In this document: in pieces, positions 1-56,728 of the stretch
How the letters are laid out: every line of letters starts with the position of its first letter
Numbering within the stretch: the stretch's first letter is position 1
Source of the DNA: Heteronotia binoei
Taxonomy: Eukaryota
Reading direction: 5' to 3'
Length of the DNA: 64,000 nucleotides
Assembly (NCBI RefSeq): GCF_032191835.1
Contig: NC_083243.1
Span: 44,950,001-45,014,000, forward strand
Program-made: the position numbers and the translations under genes
The notes under the pieces: generated by a model
Seen by the model: only the letters and a program-made list of their open reading frames with translations
Database searches by the model: none
Told to the model about the DNA's origin: nothing

Positions 1-1
1 G

Positions 2-97
2 TTGGCCCCAGAGGCAGACCCATGTCCGGCGGAAATGCCCGCGGAACTCTGGAGGCTTGGGAGAAGGAAGCCGGTAGGGCCATTCAGTTGGCGCTAG
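2..97 (+). CDS. C-terminal end of the RT/RNase H ORF (partial), overlapping the YR start
   Basis: Frame 2 reads LAPEADPCPAEMPAELWRLGRRKPVGPFSWR* (TAG 95-97). LAPEAD-P resembles the end of Ngaro RT-RH ORFs as I recall them, and the position directly before and overlapping YR fits. Confidence 0.6.
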   Translation: MAPEADPCPAEMPAELWRLGRRKPVGPFSWR

Positions 98-963
98 CCC
101 CTAGTACAAGGAGGGCCTATGCCAGGGCGACCGCTCAGTTTGGTGAATTCAGGAGTGCGGCTGCACTCCCGGATTGTTGGCCTATTCCGGTGGCGCACAT
201 CATGCAATTTTGCGTGCACCAAAAGGAAAGAGGCCTGGGGTTAAAAACCATAAGGGGACATCTGGCGGCATTGGCCTTTGACAGTAAGGCCCGCGGCCTC
301 CCGGAGTTCACAGGTGACTTTAGAGTTAAGAAGATGCTGGAGGGCTGGGCCCGGGAGAGGGTACGGCAGGTAGATGACAGACAGCCTATCTCCCCGTCCG
401 TCCTCAGTGGTTTGTTTGGGGGATGGCCCAGGGTTTGCTCCTCCCCGTTCGAGGCTGCATTGTTCCATGCTGCCTCGCTGTTGGCCTTCTTTGGGGCCCT
501 GCGCGTGAGTGAGCTGGTAGTGCAGTCAAGGGCTGACACTTCTGGGAGGGCGCTCCAATCCGGAGATGTAAAGATTACTAATAGCCAGCTAGTTCTGACG
601 ATTCGCCGGTCCAAGACTGATCAGAGACAGAGGGGGACTACCATCACGATCGGCATGTGTGCATCGCAGGAATTGTGTCCGGTCAGGGCTGTTCGTCGCT
701 ACGTGCAGCTCAGGGGTGAGGCCCGAGGTCCTTTTCTTAGGCACGATGATGGCTCCCCTCTTACCAAATATCAGTTCTGGTCGGTCACAAGCAAGGCCCT
801 AGTTCGCTTAGGTCTCGCTGGCGTCAAATTTGGGACGCATTCCTTCCGGATTGGGGCGGCCTCCACAGCTGCTTCTATGGGCTACACGCCATCTGCCATT
901 CGGCATATTGGCCGATGGCGGTCGGCGGCTTATAAGTCTTATGTGCGCCCCCTGGTCACCTAG
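22..963 (+). CDS. Tyrosine recombinase (DIRS/Ngaro YR), intact, 313 aa
   Basis: Catalytic motifs in order: GALRVSEL (R), RRSKTDQ (K), HSFRIG (HxxR), GRWRS (H/W), AYKSYVRP (Y). N-terminal LAPSTRRAY SAM-like region. No stops. Confidence 0.95.
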   Translation: MSGGNARGTLEAWEKEAGRAIQLALAPSTRRAYARATAQFGEFRSAAALPDCWPIPVAHIMQFCVHQKERGLGLKTIRGHLAALAFDSKARGLPEFTGDFRVKKMLEGWARERVRQVDDRQPISPSVLSGLFGGWPRVCSSPFEAALFHAASLLAFFGALRVSELVVQSRADTSGRALQSGDVKITNSQLVLTIRRSKTDQRQRGTTITIGMCASQELCPVRAVRRYVQLRGEARGPFLRHDDGSPLTKYQFWSVTSKALVRLGLAGVKFGTHSFRIGAASTAASMGYTPSAIRHIGRWRSAAYKSYVRPLVT

Positions 964-1010
964 TAGGTAGGTGGGGGGGAGGGGTCTGTTGTTTGCATTG
1001 TGTATGTTAT

Positions 1011-1035
1011 GCTGACAGTTGTTTGTTCTTTCAGG
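1011..1035 (+). promoter_or_regulatory. Candidate branch point and 3' splice site upstream of the hydrolase ORF
   Basis: GCTGAC (branch A at 1015), T-rich tract TTGTTTGTTCTTT, then CAG|G with AG at 1033-1034. Confidence 0.65.
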
Positions 1036-1630
1036 TGCTGTGGCTCGTGGTGAGAGAAGGCGGGTTCTCATCTGCGGGCACAGCATGGTTTTCTGGGCGG
1101 CCCACTTCGCCAGACGGTCTCCTGTGGGCACCCAGCTTGGCCTCAGTGCGTGGGCTACTGTGGAATGGCTGGGTCGTCGGGGACTGCGCTGGCCCGGGAT
1201 CATGCCACTGTTGTTCAGGGAGCGTAAGGCGTTACCTCCACACATCCTGGTTGTTCACTTGGGAGGGAACGACTTGGGGTTGCTGCGTGGGAAGGCCCTT
1301 TCCCAGCAGGCTTTGGCCGACCTCCGCGAAATTCGGCGCAGGTGGCCGGGGGTCCTACTAGTGTGGTCGGCAATTTTGCCGCGCAGGGTCTGGAGGTACG
1401 CCATTTCGCCAGGTGGAATCGAACGGGCTAGACGTAAGGCCAACAGGGCCATCCAGAAGGCCATGGAGGGGGGATTGGGAATTTTCCTCCCGCATCCGGC
1501 CATACGGGTCAATCAAGCTGACCTGTATCGGCCGGATGGTGTGCATTTATCTGATTCGGGTAACCGGGCCTTTTTGGATGAAATTCGGCAGGGGGTGCGG
1601 TTGGCTCTGGGCCACCCGTTGGGGCGCTAA
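1019..1630 (+). CDS. SGNH/GDSL-family hydrolase (esterase), accessory ORF of the Ngaro element; probable exon starts at 1035
   Basis: Block I GHS (S22), block II G55 (GRRGLRW), block III HLGGND (N84), block V DGVH (D173/H176). In-frame TGA at 1013-1015. The first ATG (M23) lies after the catalytic Ser. Confidence 0.88.
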   Translation: MFVLSGAVARGERRRVLICGHSMVFWAAHFARRSPVGTQLGLSAWATVEWLGRRGLRWPGIMPLLFRERKALPPHILVVHLGGNDLGLLRGKALSQQALADLREIRRRWPGVLLVWSAILPRRVWRYAISPGGIERARRKANRAIQKAMEGGLGIFLPHPAIRVNQADLYRPDGVHLSDSGNRAFLDEIRQGVRLALGHPLGR

Positions 1631-1659: not shown

Positions 1660-2064
1660 GGCTGGATGAGGTTTGGCCACGGGGTTTCCCAGGGGAGCAC
1701 CTATGGCCTAGCACCGGTGGTGCGGTGGTCTGCAGGAACCGTAGATGGGCTAAACGGCTCAGTACGGTGATGCAGATCACAGGGAGCCTCACCTGGGTGG
1801 ATCTTTCCATGGGGGATTGATGCCAGCCCGGTGGGTGATGGCTGGAGGCCTGGCCGCTCAGTTACAACCCGAATAAGGCGGGTTTGTGCTGGGGGCAGGG
1901 TGGCTCGCCCTTTCGGCAAGGCGGGGTCCAGGTGTTGACCCCAGGGCTTGTCTGGTTTGGTTTTACCCCCCCTGCCAGTTACAGTTGTTAATTCTTAAAT
2001 AAAGCGGCCCGGTTTATAACCCAACACTTGTGTCTGCCTCTTCTTTCCGACTGCGGGTGCAAGG
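1660..2064 (+). repeat. Split direct repeat B1 (405 bp) with AATAAA at 1998-2003
   Basis: Identical by visual alignment to 2410-2814 (offset 750). Confidence 0.95.
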
Positions 2065-2409
2065 TTCGGCCCCTTCCCAGCCGAGCCAGCGTGCTGGCTA
2101 TTAGGCTGGGGGCCGTTTTTGCGCCTGCGGAAGGAGGGAGGGGCAGAAACATCACCCGACATACGGGTGTCTGCCCAGGCGCGAGCTGGGGCTATATAAG
2201 CCCCGGCTCTCGCCCTCCTGCGCAGTTTGGATTTGGCTCTCTGCCCGCCCTCCCTTCCCATTGGCAGTACAGGCTTACGCTGGTCGCCTTTTTAGGGGCC
2301 AGGTAGGAATTTTTTCACTCCCACACAATTGGCGTCAGTGGGGGTGTTTTTCGCCTACCTTGTACTGCCTAGTAGGTTAGGTTTGGTTAATGGTATTAGT
2401 TTGGTCGCA
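2065..2409 (+). promoter_or_regulatory. Split direct repeat A2 (promoter-bearing unit); TATA box TATATAAG at 2193-2200
   Basis: 345-bp CpG-rich unit between the two B copies, with a TATA box and a donor-like CAG|GTAGGA at 2302/2303. The matching A1 copy is expected upstream of the window and is not visible. Confidence 0.7.
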
Positions 2410-2814
2410 GGCTGGATGAGGTTTGGCCACGGGGTTTCCCAGGGGAGCACCTATGGCCTAGCACCGGTGGTGCGGTGGTCTGCAGGAACCGTAGATGGGC
2501 TAAACGGCTCAGTACGGTGATGCAGATCACAGGGAGCCTCACCTGGGTGGATCTTTCCATGGGGGATTGATGCCAGCCCGGTGGGTGATGGCTGGAGGCC
2601 TGGCCGCTCAGTTACAACCCGAATAAGGCGGGTTTGTGCTGGGGGCAGGGTGGCTCGCCCTTTCGGCAAGGCGGGGTCCAGGTGTTGACCCCAGGGCTTG
2701 TCTGGTTTGGTTTTACCCCCCCTGCCAGTTACAGTTGTTAATTCTTAAATAAAGCGGCCCGGTTTATAACCCAACACTTGTGTCTGCCTCTTCTTTCCGA
2801 CTGCGGGTGCAAGG
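2410..2814 (+). repeat. Split direct repeat B2 (405 bp), right end of the element; AATAAA at 2748-2753
   Basis: Identical to B1, followed by host sequence. Confidence 0.95.
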
Positions 2815-4705: not shown

Positions 4706-5552
4706 GTTGAATGTGTGTGCATAACATTTCTAATGTGCTAAATGAATTTATTACCAATGGCAAGCCACGTGTCTCTGCTTTCTCTGAAGACACACTGGTC
4801 ACGTCTGTTGTGCCATTGATATTCCCACTCCAGCACACAGGGATGTTACATCAACTCCCGCTCATGTCAGTAAACTCCTGAGTGCAGCATGCAAGATCAT
4901 AGGGGGGAAATTAAAATAAAGGTTAATGTCATTTTTTTATGGTTGACTGGCACTTTAAAAGTCCAAGGAGGAAAAGATGGGCTCTAAAGTCGGATATATT
5001 TATTAGGCGGTGTGTCATCAGAGAGTCCCAATCACAGCTGTCAAGGTTGAGCTCATCATCAGAGAAGGAGGATTACGAGGGACTGGAAAGCCAGCAGCAC
5101 TCAAGACTGCAGCAGCTCATTTCTCTGGCTCAAGCTGAGACCATCAAAGCTCGAAGGAAGGGAATGTGCAAGAAAGCTAGGGAATATATTGCATTTGCAT
5201 AGTCCTGGAACTCATCTGCATGAATCCACCCATTTCGTAATACATGCCTGGTATTGCCAAGGAAAACATTGCATTCTTTCTTATTTTATTTATTATGGAT
5301 GTACCATTTTAATACACAAAGTTTAGGCAATTGTATCTCCCCTCCCATCTCTCATTGGCTGCATGTTGTTCCATTTTGATTTACTGATGGACATTTTAAA
5401 AGTTACTTCTGGAAGTAACTGGTTATAACATAATATTCCTGCTTCTGCTAGGCTCAATCTGTGCAAATAGTCTAGGGTGAAATACTTCTTTGGTTGCACA
5501 TAATGTTTGTCAGAATGAAGCCAGAAGTGGATCAACAATCTTTTCTTCTACG

Positions 5553-5830
5553 CCAGTTTGGTGTAGTGGTTAAGTGTGTGGATTCTTATCTGGGAGAACC
5601 GGGTTTGATTCCCCCACTCCTCCACTTGCACCTGCTGGAATGGCCTTGGGTCAGCCATAGCTATCGCAGGAGTTGTCCTTGAAAGGGCACCTGCTGTGAG
5701 AGCCCTCTCAGTCCCACCCACCTCACAGGGTGTCTGTTGTGGGGGGAGAAGATATAGGAGATTGTAAGCCGCTCTGAGTCTCTGATGCAGAGAGAAGGGC
5801 GGGGTATAAAGCTGCAGTCTTCTTCTTCTT
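5553..5830 (+). mobile_element. Squam3-like tRNA-derived SINE
   Basis: Head CCAGTTTGGTGTAGTGGTTAAGTG...GGTTTGATTCCCCACTCC and (TCT)n tail. Several near-identical copies in the window. Confidence 0.8.
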
Positions 5831-8800
5831 AGGTCATTGTCAATCCTGCTTTAGTAAAGAGTTGCCTCAAAGTAAAGTCTCTTACTACTTACAGGTTTTT
5901 CCTTCTGTATATTAAAAAATTGCATTGGGTACAAAACCAAACCAGAAATGCTTTGACTTTGTCATCTGTCCATCCCCCCACTCAAGTGCATTAACTCTGT
6001 TACAGGTTTAAAAAAACACCATGAATTTCCTCCCAGAAAACACTATTCCAACAATTGTAATTGTTCTGGTGAGATACAGGCTTTTTCTGCATACACAACT
6101 TACTTCTGATTTTCACTGAAGTTGAATCAGTTTGGGTTTACTTCAAATACTGTGCCTGCACCCTGCATTCCCCCCCCCTCCAATTTCTATTTAGCATTGC
6201 AGAGTATATATTCAGCATACCAATGAGAAACCTTGGGTAGTGTAGTGGGGTTGGTCTCTCCTGATTGCTTTGTTTTGCACTGGGCATGTCTTTTGAAGTA
6301 GGAGATTCTTCCAGCTGAATTTACTGTAGGATCACCATTAGTATCCCCCCCTTCATCAGTAGTGGAGGAATTTAATATTAATCTGGGATGGCTGGAGGGC
6401 AAAAAAAAAATATTGACAGGGACTGTTTTTAGGAGATGCTGACCACTTGGCCAGAGAGGCAATGGGGAGGCTGCTGTGCAACCACTTGGCAGAGGAGGTT
6501 CCTGGCGGGGGGAGGTGGAGACGTCAGTGCTTTGTAGCCTGAGTTTCCCACCATAGTTATTTGAAATTGAGATGACAAAAAGGGAAGACCAGATGTTGAG
6601 ATGGATGAGACTTTAAAAAAAAAAACCCAGGCTGCTGCTGCTGCCCCAGAGCATCTTCCACTTTTTATCCTCATGTTTGAAATATTTGCAGTCCAAGTCA
6701 ATGTAAAAGATTTTTTTCAAAAACAAAATTACCCTGAAGAACAATCAAACAAACAACCTTACTGTTAATAGCACTGTATCTTAACCAACCAAACTAACTG
6801 GCTATTCCTGCAAACAAGTTAGACAATGGCAATTACTTTCCTAGCCTCCTATTTCAAAAGACATGCCTAGTGCAAAACTGACCAATAAGGAGAGACCAAC
6901 TGGCCTGTGAAGAGAAGGGAGGAGGAAAAGCCTGATGAAATATGTATACTTTTAAAGGCTTGGAAGTGAACTAAAAGGATAAATAGTCACAAAATGACTC
7001 TGAGAAACCCCAGGGGGAAAAAAACAGACTGAAAGCAGGCGCAGAGTTGAAGGGGGTGGGGAAGGAATCAGTGCAGAAAAAATGCAGTTGGAATGTGCAG
7101 GGGACTGTGATGCACAGCGAAAGTGAAGGAAATGAAGGTGCAGAAAGGGCCTTATCAATCAATTAACATTTTATTTATATCCCGCCCTCTCCGTCGAAGC
7201 AGGCTCAGGGCGGCTAACAACATCAAATACAATAGATTATACAATAAATATTTAAAAACAGTATCTAGCTTTAAAACAGTCTATCTTTTCTGATAACTGA
7301 TGACAACTCCTTGTAAGCTGGAGAAGATCTGCCTCACCACAGAGATATATGATCTCGGAGCAGAAAGATATATTAGACCAATAGCATTTTTTTTAAAGTA
7401 ATTATGAATGCAATTATAAATACAATCATTCATTGACTTTTCTGAAAGTGACTTTTCAGGCTCTGGGTACTTGGGTATTGTAAAACACAATGTCTTCTGG
7501 CACTGCAAAAAAATAATAATGGTGGTACATTTTTTCTGCCCCCAAATACACTGAGATTTGGCTTGGGGTAGAAATACCCCACTTCTGCCACCACCACTGT
7601 TGATAACAGGCTAGTTAAGATTTGCAACAGCTGAAGAACCCCACATTTTAGGGCAAAATGGCTTACTGATTTTAAACTGCAAAAACAAAAATTGAATAAA
7701 GAGAAATTTAAGCCCTGTTAACCTTAACAGGGGATGTGTAGCACATGAGATAGCCTGCTTTATCATGGGGTTTGTCTTGTGTCACCCTTTATAGTCAGCT
7801 TCTGTTTCAGCTTGTATAGAGAGCTAGCTGTGCATACAGAAAGCAGCCCAGGTGCTCTCTCTAAAACCCTCTGCATGGCTGCAGGGGATTCCGGGCCTTT
7901 TCTCACTTCGACCTAGGAGGTATTGAACTAGACTACAAGCCAAGAAAAGGTGGAAGACTTATGTTTCCAATGTTCTGCCAACAAAACCAATATAAGAAAG
8001 CTCAAAATTAATTAGTACAAAGTGTGCCAGTAATACATTTCTATGTATATCCAATCATGTTATTAACCAAGTCTGCATATATGCATGCATACATGCATAG
8101 GTATATATAAATTCATAGAGGCAAAGAGCTGATGCATAAAAAGATTATTGATTTGTTTTCATTTTTGGATGTTGCCTTTGTAATAAATTGGTGGTCTGTG
8201 ATTTGAAATGATGAAACGACCAAAGCATGCTGGTTTGCAAGGGAATTGATACTTTTTGATTATTGCCAGCTGGGCCATGCTAGTTTTGAATTTTAATAAT
8301 ATACAGTAATTGGCTCACATTGCAAAAAGTGTTATTTGTTTTTTTTTGGGGGGGGGGATTCCTGTCCACTTTACCTACAAACATTTAACTAAGGTTGAAT
8401 AGGGTAGGTGAGATTTTTGAGGATTCTGTTTTTTCATCAGCATTCCTATTAGGATTAGCACATTCTCTTAAACACCACCAGGAAGAAGGAAAGTCAATGC
8501 TTTAAAAAGGAAAGCAATCATCAGATGAATGTAATAAACTAGTTCACTGTCAGGGGAGTGATAAAAAATGATATGGTGCTGCTTTGCCTCAGAAATTCTG
8601 TCTCCCCCATCCAGGTAGATTTTGGAATCATTCTAAAACACTGTGGAACTTTCCAAATGTACCTCAAAATGGAGCTAAGGAATTCCAAGGGTTGGTGCAT
8701 ATCTTTATTAGCTGATGCAGTATATGATGGGGAAAGTGTGGGTGGTGTTTTTAACCAACAAACCAGGATCTGTTGGGTGATTCCCCTCATCATATTAATG

Positions 8801-9540
8801 TAATTATTAATTAGGTTTTATTAGTGTCTTTGTGTGTGTGTTATGCTACAGAAAGTCCTGCCAAATCTGGGACCTACGTACTTGAAAGGATGTCTCCCCC
8901 TCCATACATTTACCCTGAAACTTCAATTAGACCCCAGTTTTTGTTGGCATTCCCAACTGTGTGCCAAGCAGGACCTGCCCTAGACTATCTGGCACCCTAA
9001 GCAAGCCTAACTTCTGGTGCCCCCCCCCCCCCATGTTGCTGAGGGATCCTGAGGAATACATGGAGGAGGGGGGAGAGAAGAGAGATCAAAGGTTTGCTGT
9101 AGGAGGAGTAAAATCAGCAAATCTTGTTCACCCCCTTCCAGTCCCTGGCTGGACTAAGAACTACCCACGAACACCCAAGGAGCTCAAAACACTTGTTACC
9201 TTCTCCTTCTCACTTTCTCATTCACTTTTATGCAAGCATTTCTTTGTAATGTTCCTGGCTCTGCTTTTGGCACAGGACGTATGGGGGGGGGGAGTGGAAT
9301 TTTGTCTCTTTCTCCTTATTCCTCCTCCTGAAGAAAGAACTTTACAAAACTATACATTTTACAGCATGCCCTAAATGTCTCACTTATGTTTTAAGTTGAA
9401 TGTTGATTTTAAAATTTGTTGTATAACTCATTGTACAGACTGATTATGTTGTTAGCCGCCCTGAGCCTGCTTCGGCGGGGAGGGCAGGATATAAATAAAA
9501 TGTTATTATTATCCTTCTTTTTTGTAAATGGCTGCATCAC

Positions 9541-9690
9541 CCCCCTGCAAAGAGCAATGGGCCTGCAAAGAGCAATGGGCCACGATGCTGCTGATGAGGA
9601 AACAGCTCCATACACACACACACACGCACCACCTCCCCAGACAGTGCTGACCCTGCAAAGAGCAACAGGCCACACTGCTGCCTATGGGGA
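9541..9690 (+). repeat. Minisatellite cluster 1 (~72-bp core plus CA-rich spacer)
   Basis: Units CTCCCCAGACAGTGCTG(G/A)CCCTGCAAAGAGCAA...GGAAACAGCTCCA, shared with clusters at 10795-11030 and 11455-11760. Confidence 0.8.
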
Positions 9691-9809
9691 AATAAGTACA
9701 ACACAACACAGAGAAAACTGTGTAGCGAACATAAAAAAAAAAAAAAAACCCAAGCAGGGTACACAGCCTGTGATACTGCAAAAACTTATAGAACACTCAT
9801 GAACTCTAT

Positions 9810-10095
9810 GGGCGTTTTCGCACTCACCTTCAGCCGGCGCGACCCCCCTCTTCACCGCGCAGGATCTGCGCGGATTTCGCACTAAATGCCGCGGAGCAGC
9901 CGGAAGAGCCGGAAACTCCTGTCACAAAAGCCACGCAAACGGAAACTGCTTTTTGGCGGTTTACGTTTGAGCGGCTTTTGCGCCGGGAGTTTCCGGCTCT
10001 TCCGGCTGCTCCGCGGCATTTAGTGCGAAATCCGCGCAGATCCTGCGTGGTGAAGAGGGGGGTCACGCCGGCTGAAGGTGAGTGCGAAAACGCCC
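9810..10095. mobile_element. Palindromic PIF/Harbinger-like MITE, subfamily A (286 bp)
   Basis: GGGCGTTTTCGCACTCACC...GGTGAGTGCGAAAACGCCC with long inverted arms, 3-bp TSD TAT (9807-9809, 10096-10098), CpG-rich. Confidence 0.88.
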
Positions 10096-10439
10096 TATAT
10101 GACAGTAAATAATTGATTGCTTTTATCCAACGTGCTGCCTTAATGAAGAATTATTCCGGAATGGTGCACAGAAAGCACTCACTCCGTGATGTGACGATTC
10201 TTAAAGGCACATACAAATTTATTGCACAAGACAAAAATGCAACTAGTACATATTTCAATAGTGGCTCCTTCGAGCTTCCAAGGATAGTTACTTAGTCCAT
10301 AAGAATGCTGGACTACCCAGCAGTAAGACTGGATAGTCAATGTTAGATGTTCCAAGGGATCCCAAATTGCCATAGTATGGTAGGGAGTCCAGAATGATGT
10401 TAAGTTCCGGTTTATGGGCCTAGTCTGTTGCTGTAAGTT

Positions 10440-10790
10440 GTCCTTATGGAAAAGCAAGGTGGAAGAGTACCGTTTTACAGGCCCTGCAGAACTGTGAGAG
10501 CTCTTGCAGGGCCCTAACATCCTCCAGCAACTCATTCCACCAGCTAGGTGCAGCCACAAAAAAGGCCCTGGCTCTAGTTGACTGAAGCCTACCTTCCCCG
10601 ACGCTGGCAACTGTCAACAGGTTTTGAGACCAGGACCGAAATGCTCGCTGGGGCATATATGGGGAAAGGCTCATATATGGTATGTAAGGCCTAAGGTATG
10701 TAGGACCCTGGCCACATAGGGCTTTAAAGGTTAAAACCAGCACCTTGAAGCGAATCCGGTACATTATTGGTAGCCAGTGCAGCACTGGGG
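10440..10790 (-). mobile_element. L2 LINE 3' fragment
   Basis: Minus-strand peptide LHWLPIMYRIRFKVLVLTFKAL...RAFFVAAPSWWNEL...FCRACKT is typical of the L2/CR1-group ORF2 C-terminus. Confidence 0.85.
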
Positions 10791-10794
10791 AACA

Positions 10795-11030
10795 TGATGG
10801 GGAAATGGCTCCACATACACATATATGCACAGAAACCTGCCTCCTTGGACAGTGCTGGCCCTGCAAAGAGCAACAGGCCATGCTGCTGCTGATGAGAAAG
10901 CGGCTCCACACACACACAAACACACATACGCACACATGCTCCACCTCCCCGACAGCATTGACCCTGCAAAGAGCAATGGGCCATGCTGCTGCCAATGGGG
11001 AAACAGCTCCACACACACACACACCTGCCT
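10795..11030 (+). repeat. Minisatellite cluster 2 (3 units)
   Basis: Same core unit as 9541-9690, with variable CA-rich spacers. Confidence 0.8.
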
Positions 11031-11454
11031 AAGGTGAGGTATGCTCCTTAATGAAATAGCCCAATGTTCACACTGAAAATGAGAAGCTTAATGCTATGAT
11101 AAGAGAATGTAGAACAGGGTTTCTAAACAACTGAGCCATTAAAACTGAGGAAGGAATTGAAACATCATCAAAATCTGGAGAGATGTCTTAAGAAAGTGGC
11201 TGCATTGAAGCTACGTTCCTTAGGAGCACCCACCTTGAGAATTTCAGTTGGACTGTTTCCAAGTTTGGACATATCTATTCATTTGGGGATGGGGTTTTTT
11301 GGCCCCCTTGGGGTTTCTGTTCCTTTAAAAGGCCTCAACACCGCTGGCCTCTTATCAATATTGTATTGTTTATTATGTGTTGTACACAATCCTTGTAATA
11401 TATTTTTGCAAACTGTAAGACGGTGTATTACTTGGTGTATTACTTGTTCAGTCT

Positions 11455-11472
11455 GCCAACAGGGAAATGGCT

Positions 11473-11508
<36 letters not shown>

Positions 11509-11760
11509 GCCTCCCCAGACAGTGCTGGCCCTGCAAAGACCAATGGGACATGCTGCTGCCAATGGGGAAATGTTTCCACACATACATACCTGCCTCCACG
11601 GACAGTGCTGGCCCTGCAAAGACCAATGGGCCACATCGTTGCCGATGGGGAAACGGTTCCACAAACAAAAACACCCTGCCTCCCTGGACAGTTCTGGCCC
11701 TGCAAAGAGCACTGGGCTGTGCTGCCACAAATGGGGAGATGGTTCTCTACATACATGCAC
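11455..11760 (+). repeat. Minisatellite cluster 3 (about 4 units)
   Basis: Same core unit; includes a (CA)~15 spacer. Confidence 0.8.
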
Positions 11761-18250: not shown

Positions 18251-20197
18251 CTGGATCCATCCTACCATCTCTCCATCTTCAGCTATATTTATTATTTACT
18301 TCATTCGTACCATACCTTTCTTCACAAAGGGACCCAAAACAATTTACATCATTCTCCTTGTTTCAATTTTAACCCCACAACTATTCTATGAAGGAACTTA
18401 AGCTAGGAGTGCATAACTGGCCCAAGGTCATGCAGTGAACTTCCATGGCAGAGCGGTGATTGAAACCTGAGTCTCCCAGATCTTAGTCTGAAACTCTAAC
18501 CACTAAGAATGTGTACCTGAAAAATAATGGTACATTTTGGCTTTCAGGAAGGATCTAAATACTGGTATTCAATGATATTTGGGTGCCCCAGGACCATTTC
18601 AGGGATTCAGGTTAAATTTCTTCTTGGATAACTTAATTTGGGCTCCATTATTCCCTATGGAGGATTTTTTCAGGGGGAGCTGGACTGGCTGTTTTTCAGA
18701 CAAATGATACCAAAATTGTAGGGGTTCTAGTGCTACCTATCCACTGAACACATGCCACATTTCAAGTGAATTGGACTATGAGGTCCATTATATGCATCGC
18801 TGAGCAAAGTGCTTCCAGCCATTCCACTTTCAGAGCTGTGAACTGGTAAGGGGGGGGGGGGGATGAGCCCCACCACCACAAGAACTCCACCACCACAAAA
18901 GATGGAGGGAAGGAGAAGAAGCCAGCTAGATCTGCTGTCATTCATTATTCTCTGTGGACAGACTTGTGGGGAGAGGGGGGCTGGAGTAGATGTTTTCAAC
19001 CAAATAACACCAACATTGTAGGGAAGCTAATGCTGCCTGTTCACTAAAGAACTCCCAGATTTCAAGTGAACTGAACAAGATGCCACCAGTCAGCTTACTT
19101 GCAGAGCTGAGAACCAGGAGGGAAAAAGAAAAAACTCCCCACAAAGGAAAGCGAGATGGGAAGGAGCCATGCATCCAGATTCTCAATTCTGCTAGGCCCT
19201 GTACCCAACACGCATCAGCCAGGAGCAGTCCTTCACACACTGGGTGAAACTTGTGCTGGCTGGAAGTCACCTTCTCCAGGCCTGGCGACATTCACCAGAT
19301 TGGATCCAACTGAAAATGAGAAATACCACTGCTGGAGAAATTTGGAGAACCAAAGAAAAATCATACCTGTTGCTGCAGATTAGAAGCACCTGAAGAAGAA
19401 AAAGTACATGGATTGGGGAAGAGGCATTTTTCATAATGTCCAAGGATCCCAGATTTGTGTAACCATTCTGGAAAATCACAATTTTGGCTCAGGGATGTTT
19501 ATAATCAGCCAAACCACTAGGTACAAGCCTGCATGCTAGTTCCTACTCCTTGTGTCAAGTTCCAGCTCCTAGCTGTCAGCACTTATCACTTAGACCTCAG
19601 AGCACTGCTCCAGAGGAGACCAGCACCTTGTAGCGAATCCAGTATATTATTGGCAGCCAGTTCCTGCAGCCCCAGCTGTATGTGCTGCCTCTTGGGGAGC
19701 CCCAATAACAGCCTAGCTTTGTGGTAAGGGCCAAGCTTTGTGGCAGCATCCTCCTGGCTGCCGCAAAGATGTCATCATATTTAGTTTGGGCTCAAATGTT
19801 GATTAAAACAATGAAAAGCCCCCTGGTAGCTGGAGAGAGGAAATGGCCATGCTAGGGACAAGGTGGGAAACCCATGATGTTATGGGGAGGCAGGAAAAAG
19901 AAAACACTTCCCAACAGCATTGAGCCCAAGGCAAATAACCCATGTGGAAAGTGCCTTAGCTTTCTTTAGAGTCATGTGAAAGCAAAGGCTGAGTTTCAGT
20001 GGGAAAAGTAACAGGTATGTGCTTGTAATTTCATGGAGAAACCAGTCAGTGGAGGGAAAGAACAGGTATATCTTGTCTAGGATATCAGCAGCCTAAACTG
20101 GAATGTGGAGAATTTCTCCTCTAATTCCCTTTCAGACATAAGAACATAAGAGAATCCATGTGGGATCAGGCCAATGGCCCATCCAGTCCAACACTCT

Positions 20198-20484
20198 GGT
20201 CGTTTTCGCACTCACCTCCAGCCGGCGCGACCCCCCTCTTCATCGAGCAGGATCTGCGCGGATTTCGCACTAAATGCCGCGGAGCAGCCTTTTGTGCCGG
20301 AAACTCCCATCGCAAAAGCCGCTCAAACGTAAATCGCCAAAAAGCAATTTGGCGTTTGAGCGGCTTTTGCACCGGGAGTTTCCGGCACAAAAGGCTGCTC
20401 CACGGCATTTAGTGCGAAATCCGCACAGATCCTGTGTGGTGAAGAGGGGGGTCGCGCCGGCTGGAGGTGAGTGCGAAAACGACC
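20198..20484. mobile_element. Palindromic PIF/Harbinger-like MITE, subfamily A (287 bp)
   Basis: GGTCGTTTTCGCACTCACC...GGTGAGTGCGAAAACGACC, TSD TCT (20195-20197, 20485-20487). Confidence 0.88.
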
Positions 20485-20507
20485 TCTGTATCACACAGTG
20501 GCCAGAA

Positions 20508-50788: not shown

Positions 50789-51503
50789 TTAAATAGAGTC
50801 CATATTTTCTTCCAAATTAACATAGACTTCCTCAGTACATTCACGGGTTGTCCTTGGAGGGATGAGAGGAGAGCATTCCTTTCTCTTATTAACTCTTGAT
50901 ATAGGGGAGGAGGGAGTTAACTTGGATATTAGTATCTCACCAGAGGCTGCGTCATATGCTGTAAACGAAGTGGAGCCTTTTTGGACACATAGGGTGTTTT
51001 CGCACTTACCTTTTACTGGCGCGACGACCCTCCTCACGCCGGCGGATCTGCAGTGATTTCGCACTAGAAGCGCCGGCGCAGCCCATTGCTCCGGCTACTT
51101 CCGTCGCTAAGCCAGCGCAAACGGAAACCGCCAAGAAGCAGGAAAACGTTTGCGCTGGCTTAGCGACGGAAGTAGCCGGCTCTTTGGGCTGCGCCGGCGC
51201 TTCTAGTGCGAAATCACTGCAGATCCGCCGGCGTGAGGAGGGTCGTCGCGCCAGTAAAACGTAAGTGCGAAAACACCCATAGTTTGCCTGATTGTAGCCA
51301 TTTATATTTAATTTTTAAGTCCCGCAATTTGGCAGTTGTGTCCTTAAGGTCTCTTCTGATTCTTAAAAATTCAGCAGGGAGATCCGGAAACACCTGAATC
51401 TTTAACCCCTGGTAGTCCAGGCCTCTTCTCTCCCTAGCCTCTGCAAAGACTCTTTGCCTCATTCGATAATCCTTAAACTGCACCACAATATCTCTGGTAT
51501 AAG
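50789..51503 (-). pseudogene. L1 ORF1p (RRM end and CTD) split by a MITE; frame is continuous once MITE and one TSD are removed
   Basis: Rejoined translation ...KWLQSGKLCVQKGSTSFTAYDAASGEILISKL...NMDSI*. Confidence 0.8.
50992..51278. mobile_element. Palindromic PIF/Harbinger-like MITE, subfamily B (287 bp)
   Basis: GGGTGTTTTCGCACTTAC...GTAAGTGCGAAAACACCC; TSD ATA (50989-50991, 51279-51281), supported by restoration of the host ORF1 frame. Confidence 0.9.
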
Positions 51504-56156: not shown

Positions 56157-56728
56157 CTGTTTGGTGTAGTGGTTAAGTGTGCAGACTCTTATCTGGGAGA
56201 ACCGGGTTTGATTCCCCACTTCTCCACTTGCACCTGCTAGAATGGCCTTGGGTCAGCCGTAGCTCTGGCAGAGGTTGTCCTTGAAAGGGCAGCTGCTGTG
56301 AGAACCCTCTCCAGCCCCACCGACCTCACAGGGGCTGATTTCGCACTGACCTTTTACTGGCGCGACCACCCTCCTCACGCCGGCGGATCTGCAGGGATTT
56401 CGCACCAGAAGCGCCGGCGCAGCCAAAAGAGCCGGCAACTTCCGTCGCGAAACCCGCTCAAATGGAAACCGCCAAGAAGCAGGAAAACGTTTGAGCGGGT
56501 TTCGCGATGGAAGTAGCCGGCTCTTTTGGCTGCGCCGGCGCTTCTGGTGCGAAATCCCTGCAGATCCGCCGGCGTGAGGAGGGTGGTCGTGCCAGTAAAA
56601 GGTCAGTGCGGAAACGCCCAGGGTGTCTGTTGTGGGGGAGGAAGGTAAAGGAGATTGTGAGCTGCTCTGAGACTCTTCAGAGTGGAGGGCGGGATATAAA
56701 TCCAATATCTTCATCTTCTTCTTCTTCT
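56157..56728 (+). mobile_element. Squam3-like SINE with nested Harbinger-like MITE
   Basis: SINE body is split at CCTCAC-AGG-GTGTCTG. Confidence 0.85.
56333..56619. mobile_element. Palindromic PIF/Harbinger-like MITE, subfamily B (287 bp)
   Basis: Long inverted arms similar to 50992-51278. TSD AGG (56330-56332, 56620-56622) restores the SINE sequence seen in other copies. Confidence 0.85.

Follow-up and report, generated by a model that had tools for sequence, protein, structure and literature searches.

How can an enzyme be made from a reading frame that has no usable start codon? This question is raised by a gene for an SGNH hydrolase that lies near the beginning of a 64,000-nucleotide stretch of DNA from the gecko Heteronotia binoei (the window). 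Positions 1-2814 of the window are the 3′ half of a Ngaro tyrosine-recombinase retrotransposon with a tyrosine recombinase (YR), the hydrolase and the repeats B1-A2-B2, and this repeat layout matches the one that PMC9210276 describes for Ngaro. The features are as follows.

1..963, + strand: tyrosine recombinase (YR) ORF; open frame with its 5′ end beyond the window edge; Pfam Phage_integrase
2..97, + strand: tail of the RT/RNase H frame (LAPEAD...W), from translation; overlaps YR
964..1034, + strand: spacer from the YR stop to the hydrolase exon; putative 3′ end of an intron, from sequence
1011..1016, + strand: candidate branch-point motif GCTGAC, from sequence; A at 1015
1019..1034, + strand: pyrimidine tract and candidate CAG acceptor, phase 1, from a sequence score; junction codon 1034-1036
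1035..1630, + strand: SGNH hydrolase exon; stop 1628-1630; Pfam and motifs
1660..2064, + strand: B1 repeat; AATAAA at 1998, possible end of spliced RNAs
2065..2409, + strand: A2 repeat, placed between the B copies; 345 nt; TATATAA at 2193
2410..2814, + strand: B2 repeat; AATAAA at 2748; element end

The YR frame (1-963) matches PF00589 (Phage_integrase) with an E value of 8.9e-5, which is under the curated cut-off, and in addition a SAM-like domain; its translation shows ALRVSE, RSKTD, HSFR and GRW together with the last Tyr. It sits in the -1 frame relative to the RNase H tail, which has its stop at 95-97 and carries the motif LAPEAD...W, which related loci also show within their RNase H frame. 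No methyltransferase follows RNase H, and the SGNH ORF comes downstream of YR, an arrangement that is Ngaro-like. The hydrolase frame (1016-1630) matches PF13472 (Lipase_GDSL_2) at 1016-1627 with an E value of 1.1e-11 and contains all four SGNH blocks, GHS at 1076 (with the Ser codon at 1082-1084), GRRG at 1172, GGND at 1262 and DGVH (D-x-x-H) at 1535; its closest protein matches are from geckos (~70%). B1 (1660-2064) and B2 (2410-2814) are identical across 405 nt, and since the B copies are identical and the frames open, they point to a young insertion. No further copy of the element was present among the repeats listed for the 64,000-nt window. Gag, RT, A1 and any gag donor of this element lie upstream of window base 1, such that of the upstream genes just the RNase H tail (2-97) falls inside; the order gag-RT/RH-YR-hydrolase is complete in a distant locus, L018.

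A probable splice acceptor in place of a start codon

A reading of the window from sequence alone had claimed that the hydrolase looks like a spliced exon, and its description of the site proved accurate. The frame is closed upstream by TGA (1013-1015), the ATG at 1004 opens a three-codon uORF (M-L-C-stop), and the next in-frame ATG, at 1085, lies one codon past the catalytic Ser (1082-1084), which leaves the hydrolase without a usable ATG. The motif GCTGAC (1011-1016) places A1015 19 nt ahead of the AG, and CAG|G at 1034/1035 is in phase 1; all parts of a U2-type 3′ splice site, i.e., branch point, pyrimidine tract and YAG, are present before 1035. Apart from the uORF (1004-1015), the spacer 964-1034 carries donor-like GTAGGT sequences at 963 and 967.

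With a home-made acceptor score that was devised after seeing the data (pyrimidine tract plus YAG, no nearby AG), the AG at 1034 ranked first among the 168 AG sites in 41-2812 and was the sole site scoring at least 11 that was accompanied by a YTRAY motif. In the host flank, analyzed on both strands, 17 of 8554 AG sites scored as high, two of them with YTRAY. Because of its first rank and the rarity of its equals in flanking host DNA, the acceptor at 1034 is better than expected by chance.

Gag-hydrolase fusions in lizard gene models

Among 64 hydrolase homologues, taken from 864 candidates, 18 open with one and the same basic N-terminus (MPPKKG..KGKQP-like). All are gene models, predicted in Eublepharis, Heteronotia, Gekko, two Anolis species, Rhineura, Elgaria and Hemicordylus; Pogona later supplied a further one. 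The 46 matches without this start consist of models of smaller length, ORFs called on contigs (several of them from a Met after the Ser), and a small number of amphibian or odd models. The shared N-terminus is the beginning of continuous gag ORFs (P0104, P0108, P0115 and P0195) that also contain the conserved core motifs of gag; among them, P0104 was called on a 3.8-kb ENA contig, is 549 aa long and has C-terminal zinc knuckles. In the hydrolase fusions, gag contributes its first ~125-180 codons. Being automatic gene models, the fusion proteins are predictions; the NCBI pipeline derives such isoforms from transcript alignments.

An all-against-all comparison, from which rows matching inside enzyme domains were left out, revealed ten families whose hydrolase, YR or gag forms have the N-terminal part in common and then diverge abruptly. 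At the point of divergence, each of the 23 junction residues (Gly, Asp, Glu, Ala) is encoded by a codon beginning with G, the background being 0.46, and three gag forms run on as Gly-Lys, Gly-Lys and Gly-Ser (the last in P0195), which fits a donor of the type G|GT. Gly-Lys or Gly-Glu (G|GTAAG, G|GTGAG) occurs 3-16 residues ahead of the motif PWG in 12 of 16 unspliced gag-like proteins versus 6 of 107 control windows, the range of 3-16 residues having been picked after seeing the data. On the acceptor side, the hydrolase-form junction is located exactly 16 codons before the serine in 11/11 matched models from four genera, and the codon 1034-1036 of the window has the same position.

The sequence-only reading had proposed that the hydrolase is expressed by splicing, probably from a phase-1 donor within gag or another upstream ORF. 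A donor within gag is supported by lizard models that join the N-terminal part of gag at the junction codon of the window, and further backed by unspliced gags that read on as Gly-Lys or Gly-Ser and by an acceptor that is kept in distant relatives (see below). We conclude that 1034/1035 is very probably the acceptor for an SGNH hydrolase made as a fusion with ~125-180 residues of Gag from a phase-1 gag donor upstream of the window. The firm part of this conclusion consists of the sequence features, the fusion gene models with their junction, the conserved phase-1 acceptors and the joined DNA copies, and from these we infer that the RNA of this very copy is spliced.

The recombinase is probably joined to the same gag exon

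That the gag exon would also feed the recombinase had not been foreseen. Gene models of the Gag(N)-YR type come from Eublepharis, Hemicordylus, Elgaria, Anolis sagrei, Tiliqua and Pogona. A single locus yields both a YR and a hydrolase form, as isoforms, in Hemicordylus (LOC128347973 X1/X2, likewise LOC128341831, LOC128343527 and LOC128349017), Anolis sagrei (consecutive XP_067323426/27) and Elgaria (LOC134402235). The isoforms X1 and X2 of Eublepharis LOC129337769 are one Ala apart at the junction (E|ADG vs E|DG), a pattern as a tandem NAGNAG acceptor combined with a phase-1 donor would give. It is likely that the same gag donor has a second acceptor, located at a CAG codon of the RNase H tail, and that its use would yield a Gag(N)-recombinase. 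The YR junction precedes the Pro of the first helix motif by 39 codons, as measured by script in four of five models and by eye in the remaining one, and because of this spacing the YR acceptor of the window's element is predicted 17 bases upstream of base 1. A Gag(N)-RT fusion was found neither among 16 matches nor among the best 150 of 190 representatives, and the broken loci matched showed no consistent acceptor before RT.

As a side observation, three-exon models with the order Gag(N)-YR start-hydrolase (P0099, P0103, P0158, P0033) point to another phase-1 donor near the start of YR. At this putative donor P0109 has Gly-Lys, and the window has TTG|GTGAAT nearby at 142/143, in phase 1 (140-148).

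The shared Gag piece and the hydrolase domain

The predicted fold of the fusion P0012, calculated from a 19-row alignment (mean pLDDT 73), comprises a disordered basic start and two helices (33-52 and 74-98), which a long linker connects to an SGNH domain, and the model matches SGNH structures with an E value of 2.7e-7. At least one R-h-x-x-h-E (RhxxhE) motif is present in 18/18 N-termini; in the accessible part of PMC5940361 it is described as a trimerization motif that occurs in LINE-1 ORF1p. From the helices and the RhxxhE motifs we therefore propose that the shared Gag piece would let both enzymes co-assemble with Gag.

The best solved relative of the hydrolase family profile is the esterase of ZfL2-1 ORF1p (4C1B, E 6e-10), a coiled-coil dimer that binds negatively charged lipids according to the accessible text of PMC3905857. 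Our best guess for the role of the hydrolase would be membrane targeting of the particle, because this best solved match binds such lipids. The Ser and the strand that precedes it are conserved in the 19-row hydrolase alignment.

Acceptors are conserved in distant relatives

A metagenome scan returned 38 loci with 27-39% identity. Left out of the acceptor count were ten loci without a script-found serine motif, L035 (spurious motif), and L030 and L034 (joined copies); the remaining 25 loci were grouped by hand into 19 families, some of which are related at 65-87%. In the 75 nt that precede the serine, a test window that was likewise picked after seeing the data, the best AG is in phase 1 in 18 of the 19 families (binomial p 3e-8 vs 1/3) and in 22/25 when counted by locus, while the other AGs before the serine are spread 17/16/14 over the phases. 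The sequence-only reading had named conservation of CTGAC...CAG across Ngaro families as a check on its proposal; the phase-1 AG is kept in all families except that of L031 (212-1147), which has its own Met 15 codons before the Ser and no acceptor. L031, we note in passing, may be something other than a Ngaro ORF. A search of gag for phase-1 donors, carried out in the distant loci L018 and L009, gave candidates at codons 67/74 and 48, none of which is a clear winner. None of 15 pattern matches in viral contigs was a relative. L009 (241-5494) itself has the order YR, hydrolase, repeats, gag, RT within one contig and may be a tandem or circularly permuted element or a case of collapsed repeats.

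These data bear on the possibility that the hydrolase is translated from unspliced RNA, with TTG 1019 serving as a non-ATG start or with ribosomes re-initiating downstream of the YR stop or of the three-codon uORF. TTG 1019 is indeed in frame and ahead of the whole fold, and unspliced RNA contigs across the spacer exist. A Met at least eight codons before the Ser is nevertheless absent in 11 of the 19 families, and in the other eight it lies anywhere from 11 to 30 codons before the Ser; the start position is thus not conserved while the phase-1 AG is kept in 18/19, and the fusions join at the acceptor. We consider translation from unspliced RNA very unlikely.

For YR, six loci had both a script-found YR start and upstream DNA (L007 is cut off). 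In all six, which amount to about five tests since L022 and L027 are related, the best AG is in phase 1 and lies 113-122 nt before the first helix motif, a spacing shared by the lizard fusions. This AG belongs to the codon for Gln in the RNase H motif LSR(F/L/Y)..Q. The codon is CAG in 6/6 loci, whereas across four of these RT frames CAG accounts for 30 of 62 Gln codons. Because the acceptor lies within the conserved motif LSRFQ, its conservation may be partly driven by the protein.

Joined copies without the intron

Three loci, L030, L016 and L034, contain TGACGTCA and a TATA-like promoter, followed by a gag-like start and then the hydrolase. The start reads MPGRGR or MQGRGR, resembling the full gags of L018 and L009, and it meets the hydrolase at the exact acceptor base of the intron-bearing relatives (L015/17/20, L024/26/27 and L011/19/22), which carry TTTCCAG or TTTCAG at the joint. 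Kilobases of unrelated flank surround L016 and L034. L030, L016 and L034 look like re-inserted spliced RNAs, and since the sequence upstream of the TATA box is retained, they more likely arose through the element's own copying than through that of a LINE. An unspliced gag of the same family, in which the donor-side GT would stand, was not found for the three joined copies; deletion is a possible origin of the three. The locus L016 harbors, at 5118-5867, an intact gag(N)-hydrolase ORF of ~250 codons with a promoter and with flanks unlike the 3′ end of the element, possibly a domesticated processed copy.

A broader objection would be that the gene models are annotation artefacts, that the joined copies are deletions and that YR is produced by a -1 frameshift. 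Poulter and Butler (2015), as quoted in an excerpt of PMC13003380, consider YR to be probably translated by programmed frameshift, and the overlap of YR with the RNase H tail in the -1 frame is as this review describes. Odd models do exist, such as P0020, where YR is joined to the hydrolase, and P0033, which consists of the gag C-terminus, YR and hydrolase, and L021 is a plain deletion; its end lies away from the acceptor. Artefacts would, on the other hand, hardly produce one junction codon in 11/11 models from four genera or an isoform pair that differs by one residue; the phase-1 acceptors were found in raw DNA untouched by annotation, three joins fall at one site, and a slippery heptamer is present in just one of six RNase H/YR overlaps. 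We therefore give the objection as a whole little chance, with a frameshift being possible as an additional route to YR.

RNA from close relatives and local donor-like sites

Two RNA runs from one study, which represent related copies (word share 0.05-0.06), were available as contigs (215 and 178). RNA junctions at 1035, expected from the sequence-only reading, were not seen: none of the 13 joints listed from these two low-share runs lands on 1035. Some contigs run unspliced through the spacer, and four start at about 1027-1033. A depth step at bin 1035-1128 was left out of the evidence. On a narrower view (15 contigs, with 12 of 14 loose ends listed), the sequence upstream of 1035 looks like introns of other copies, one upstream end having CTGAC 21 nt before the AG and another TTTTGTAG|GTGCTG. 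Since these loose ends look like introns with acceptor motifs, the acceptor is kept among related copies, and its use in the window's family is predicted.

The same contigs are informative with regard to donors within the window. The earlier reading had noted TAG|GTAGGT at 966/967, confirmed here behind two stops, and had overlooked a third site, CTA|GTAGGT at 962/963, which is in frame with ATG 941 and the hydrolase exon. A short local intron of 72 nt from 962/963 to the acceptor would therefore give an in-frame hydrolase with a seven-residue leader from a good donor. Such an intron would need a fourth cistron on an RNA without a promoter of its own, no joint from 962 or 966 to 1035 occurs in the related RNA contigs, and the matched lizard models among the 64 matches use the gag exon instead, all of which makes this route less probable still than translation of unspliced RNA.

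CAG|GTAGGA at 2302/2303 in the A repeat is a good donor, too. As had been stated before, 2195-2302 contains no ATG and a TAG stands in frame; from its sequence, this A2 site cannot yield active hydrolase. Pairing it with the acceptor, whereby the first ATG would be that at 1085 past the Ser and the product catalytically dead or non-coding, is equally improbable, as no joint from 2302 to 1035 is among the 13 listed RNA joints and a product starting past the Ser would leave the conservation of the Ser and the preceding strand unexplained. Independently of the hydrolase, the end of the A repeat coincides with an acceptor-like sequence, TTAAT...TTTGGTCGCAG (window 2303-2410), which together with the donor at 2302/2303 would make a leader intron of 108 nt just ahead of the gag ATG in A1. 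Several models that reach upstream of the gag Met end in residues compatible with an AG at the end of the A repeat; the 108-nt joint was not among the 13 joints listed from related RNA contigs.

A proposed scheme for expression, and known systems

Returning to the splicing of a gag exon, the following scheme is proposed. RNA from the A1 promoter would in part stay unspliced, serving as the genome and for the synthesis of Gag and presumably RT, with ribosomes reading across the donor (G|GT = Gly) into full Gag. The one gag donor would alternatively be spliced to the YR acceptor or to 1035, and the RNA would end at the AATAAA at 1998 or 2748. The shared piece, i.e., the basic N-terminus and two predicted helices with RhxxhE, would then serve as a tag through which recombinase and esterase are recruited into the Gag particle, a role that we infer from the features of this segment.

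Beyond this element, it is rather probable that animal Ngaro elements share an old programme, in which one gag donor would serve alternative YR and esterase acceptors, a self-associating Gag tag would load the particle, the YR acceptor would reside in the LSRFQ codons of RNase H, and spliced gag-esterase RNA would be recopied as a non-autonomous element with the layout of an esterase-type LINE ORF1p.

The Xenopus elements DIRS-53_XT and DIRS-54_XT, as described in the accessible part of PMC9210276, resemble the window's element in that an SGNH ORF follows YR, the repeats are arranged as B1-A2-B2 and YR overlaps the RNase H tail; the present account differs in that both ORFs of the window's element seem to serve as 3′ exons to a gag exon. 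Retroviral env and the spliced pol of foamy viruses (PMC9143442, in the text available) are similar, as 3′ genes are expressed from singly spliced RNA and the unspliced RNA is both genome and gag mRNA. Murine leukemia virus (MLV) SD′ RNA and the retroelement SDARE are alike with respect to a gag-internal donor and re-insertion of the spliced RNA. Unlike retroviruses, Ngaro would fuse a long coding gag exon (125-180 codons) to two enzymes, one of which integrates, whereas foamy virus Pol is not a Gag fusion. Conserved alternative splicing also sets protein ratios in Ty1/Copia elements with their short GAG, according to the part of PMC5580714 at hand; there the spliced RNA gives Gag alone, whereas in Ngaro spliced RNAs would make the enzymes and unspliced RNA would make Gag. 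The layout of the predicted fusion, finally, is that of the LINE protein ZfL2-1 ORF1p (4C1B; accessible text of PMC3905857), with a basic peptide, a helical self-association segment, a linker and an esterase. ZfL2-1 differs in being a non-LTR element with one continuous ORF and an antiparallel dimer, whereas the Ngaro fusion would be spliced and has RhxxhE motifs.

The literature searched held no description of Ngaro gag spliced to YR or hydrolase; subscription papers, Repbase and supplements lay outside this search and may bear on novelty. The Ngaro hydrolase is mentioned in the accessible parts of PMC9210276, PMC6681497 and PMC7192593 without a mechanism for its expression, and the first of these calls its function unproven and contains, in the text available, neither of the words splic- and intron. 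The portions covered of PMC3783388, PMC4157794, PMC13465315, PMC4495291 and PMC5009743 contain no account of Ngaro gag splicing, that of PMC5009743 mentioning neither DIRS nor Ngaro. The element in the window is a known one, with what appears to be a hitherto undescribed and widely conserved mode of enzyme expression.

If this is true, gag-spliced enzymes replace the ribosomal frameshift so far assumed for Ngaro YR, and the real products measure ~450-500 aa for Gag(N)-YR and ~320-380 aa for Gag(N)-esterase, such that different constructs would have to be cloned for integration and esterase assays. It would also explain how the enzymes enter the RNA particle without a polyprotein of the Gag-Pol type, as well as the nature of many "uncharacterized" lizard RefSeq genes. 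The junction coordinates are predicted to the base.

Other repeats in the window

Outside the element, the window contains a family of ~83-nt repeats alternating with CA runs at 9500-11760 and four palindromic MITE-like elements of ~290 nt with long inverted arms (9802-10096, 20190-20485, 50984-51279 and 56325-56620).
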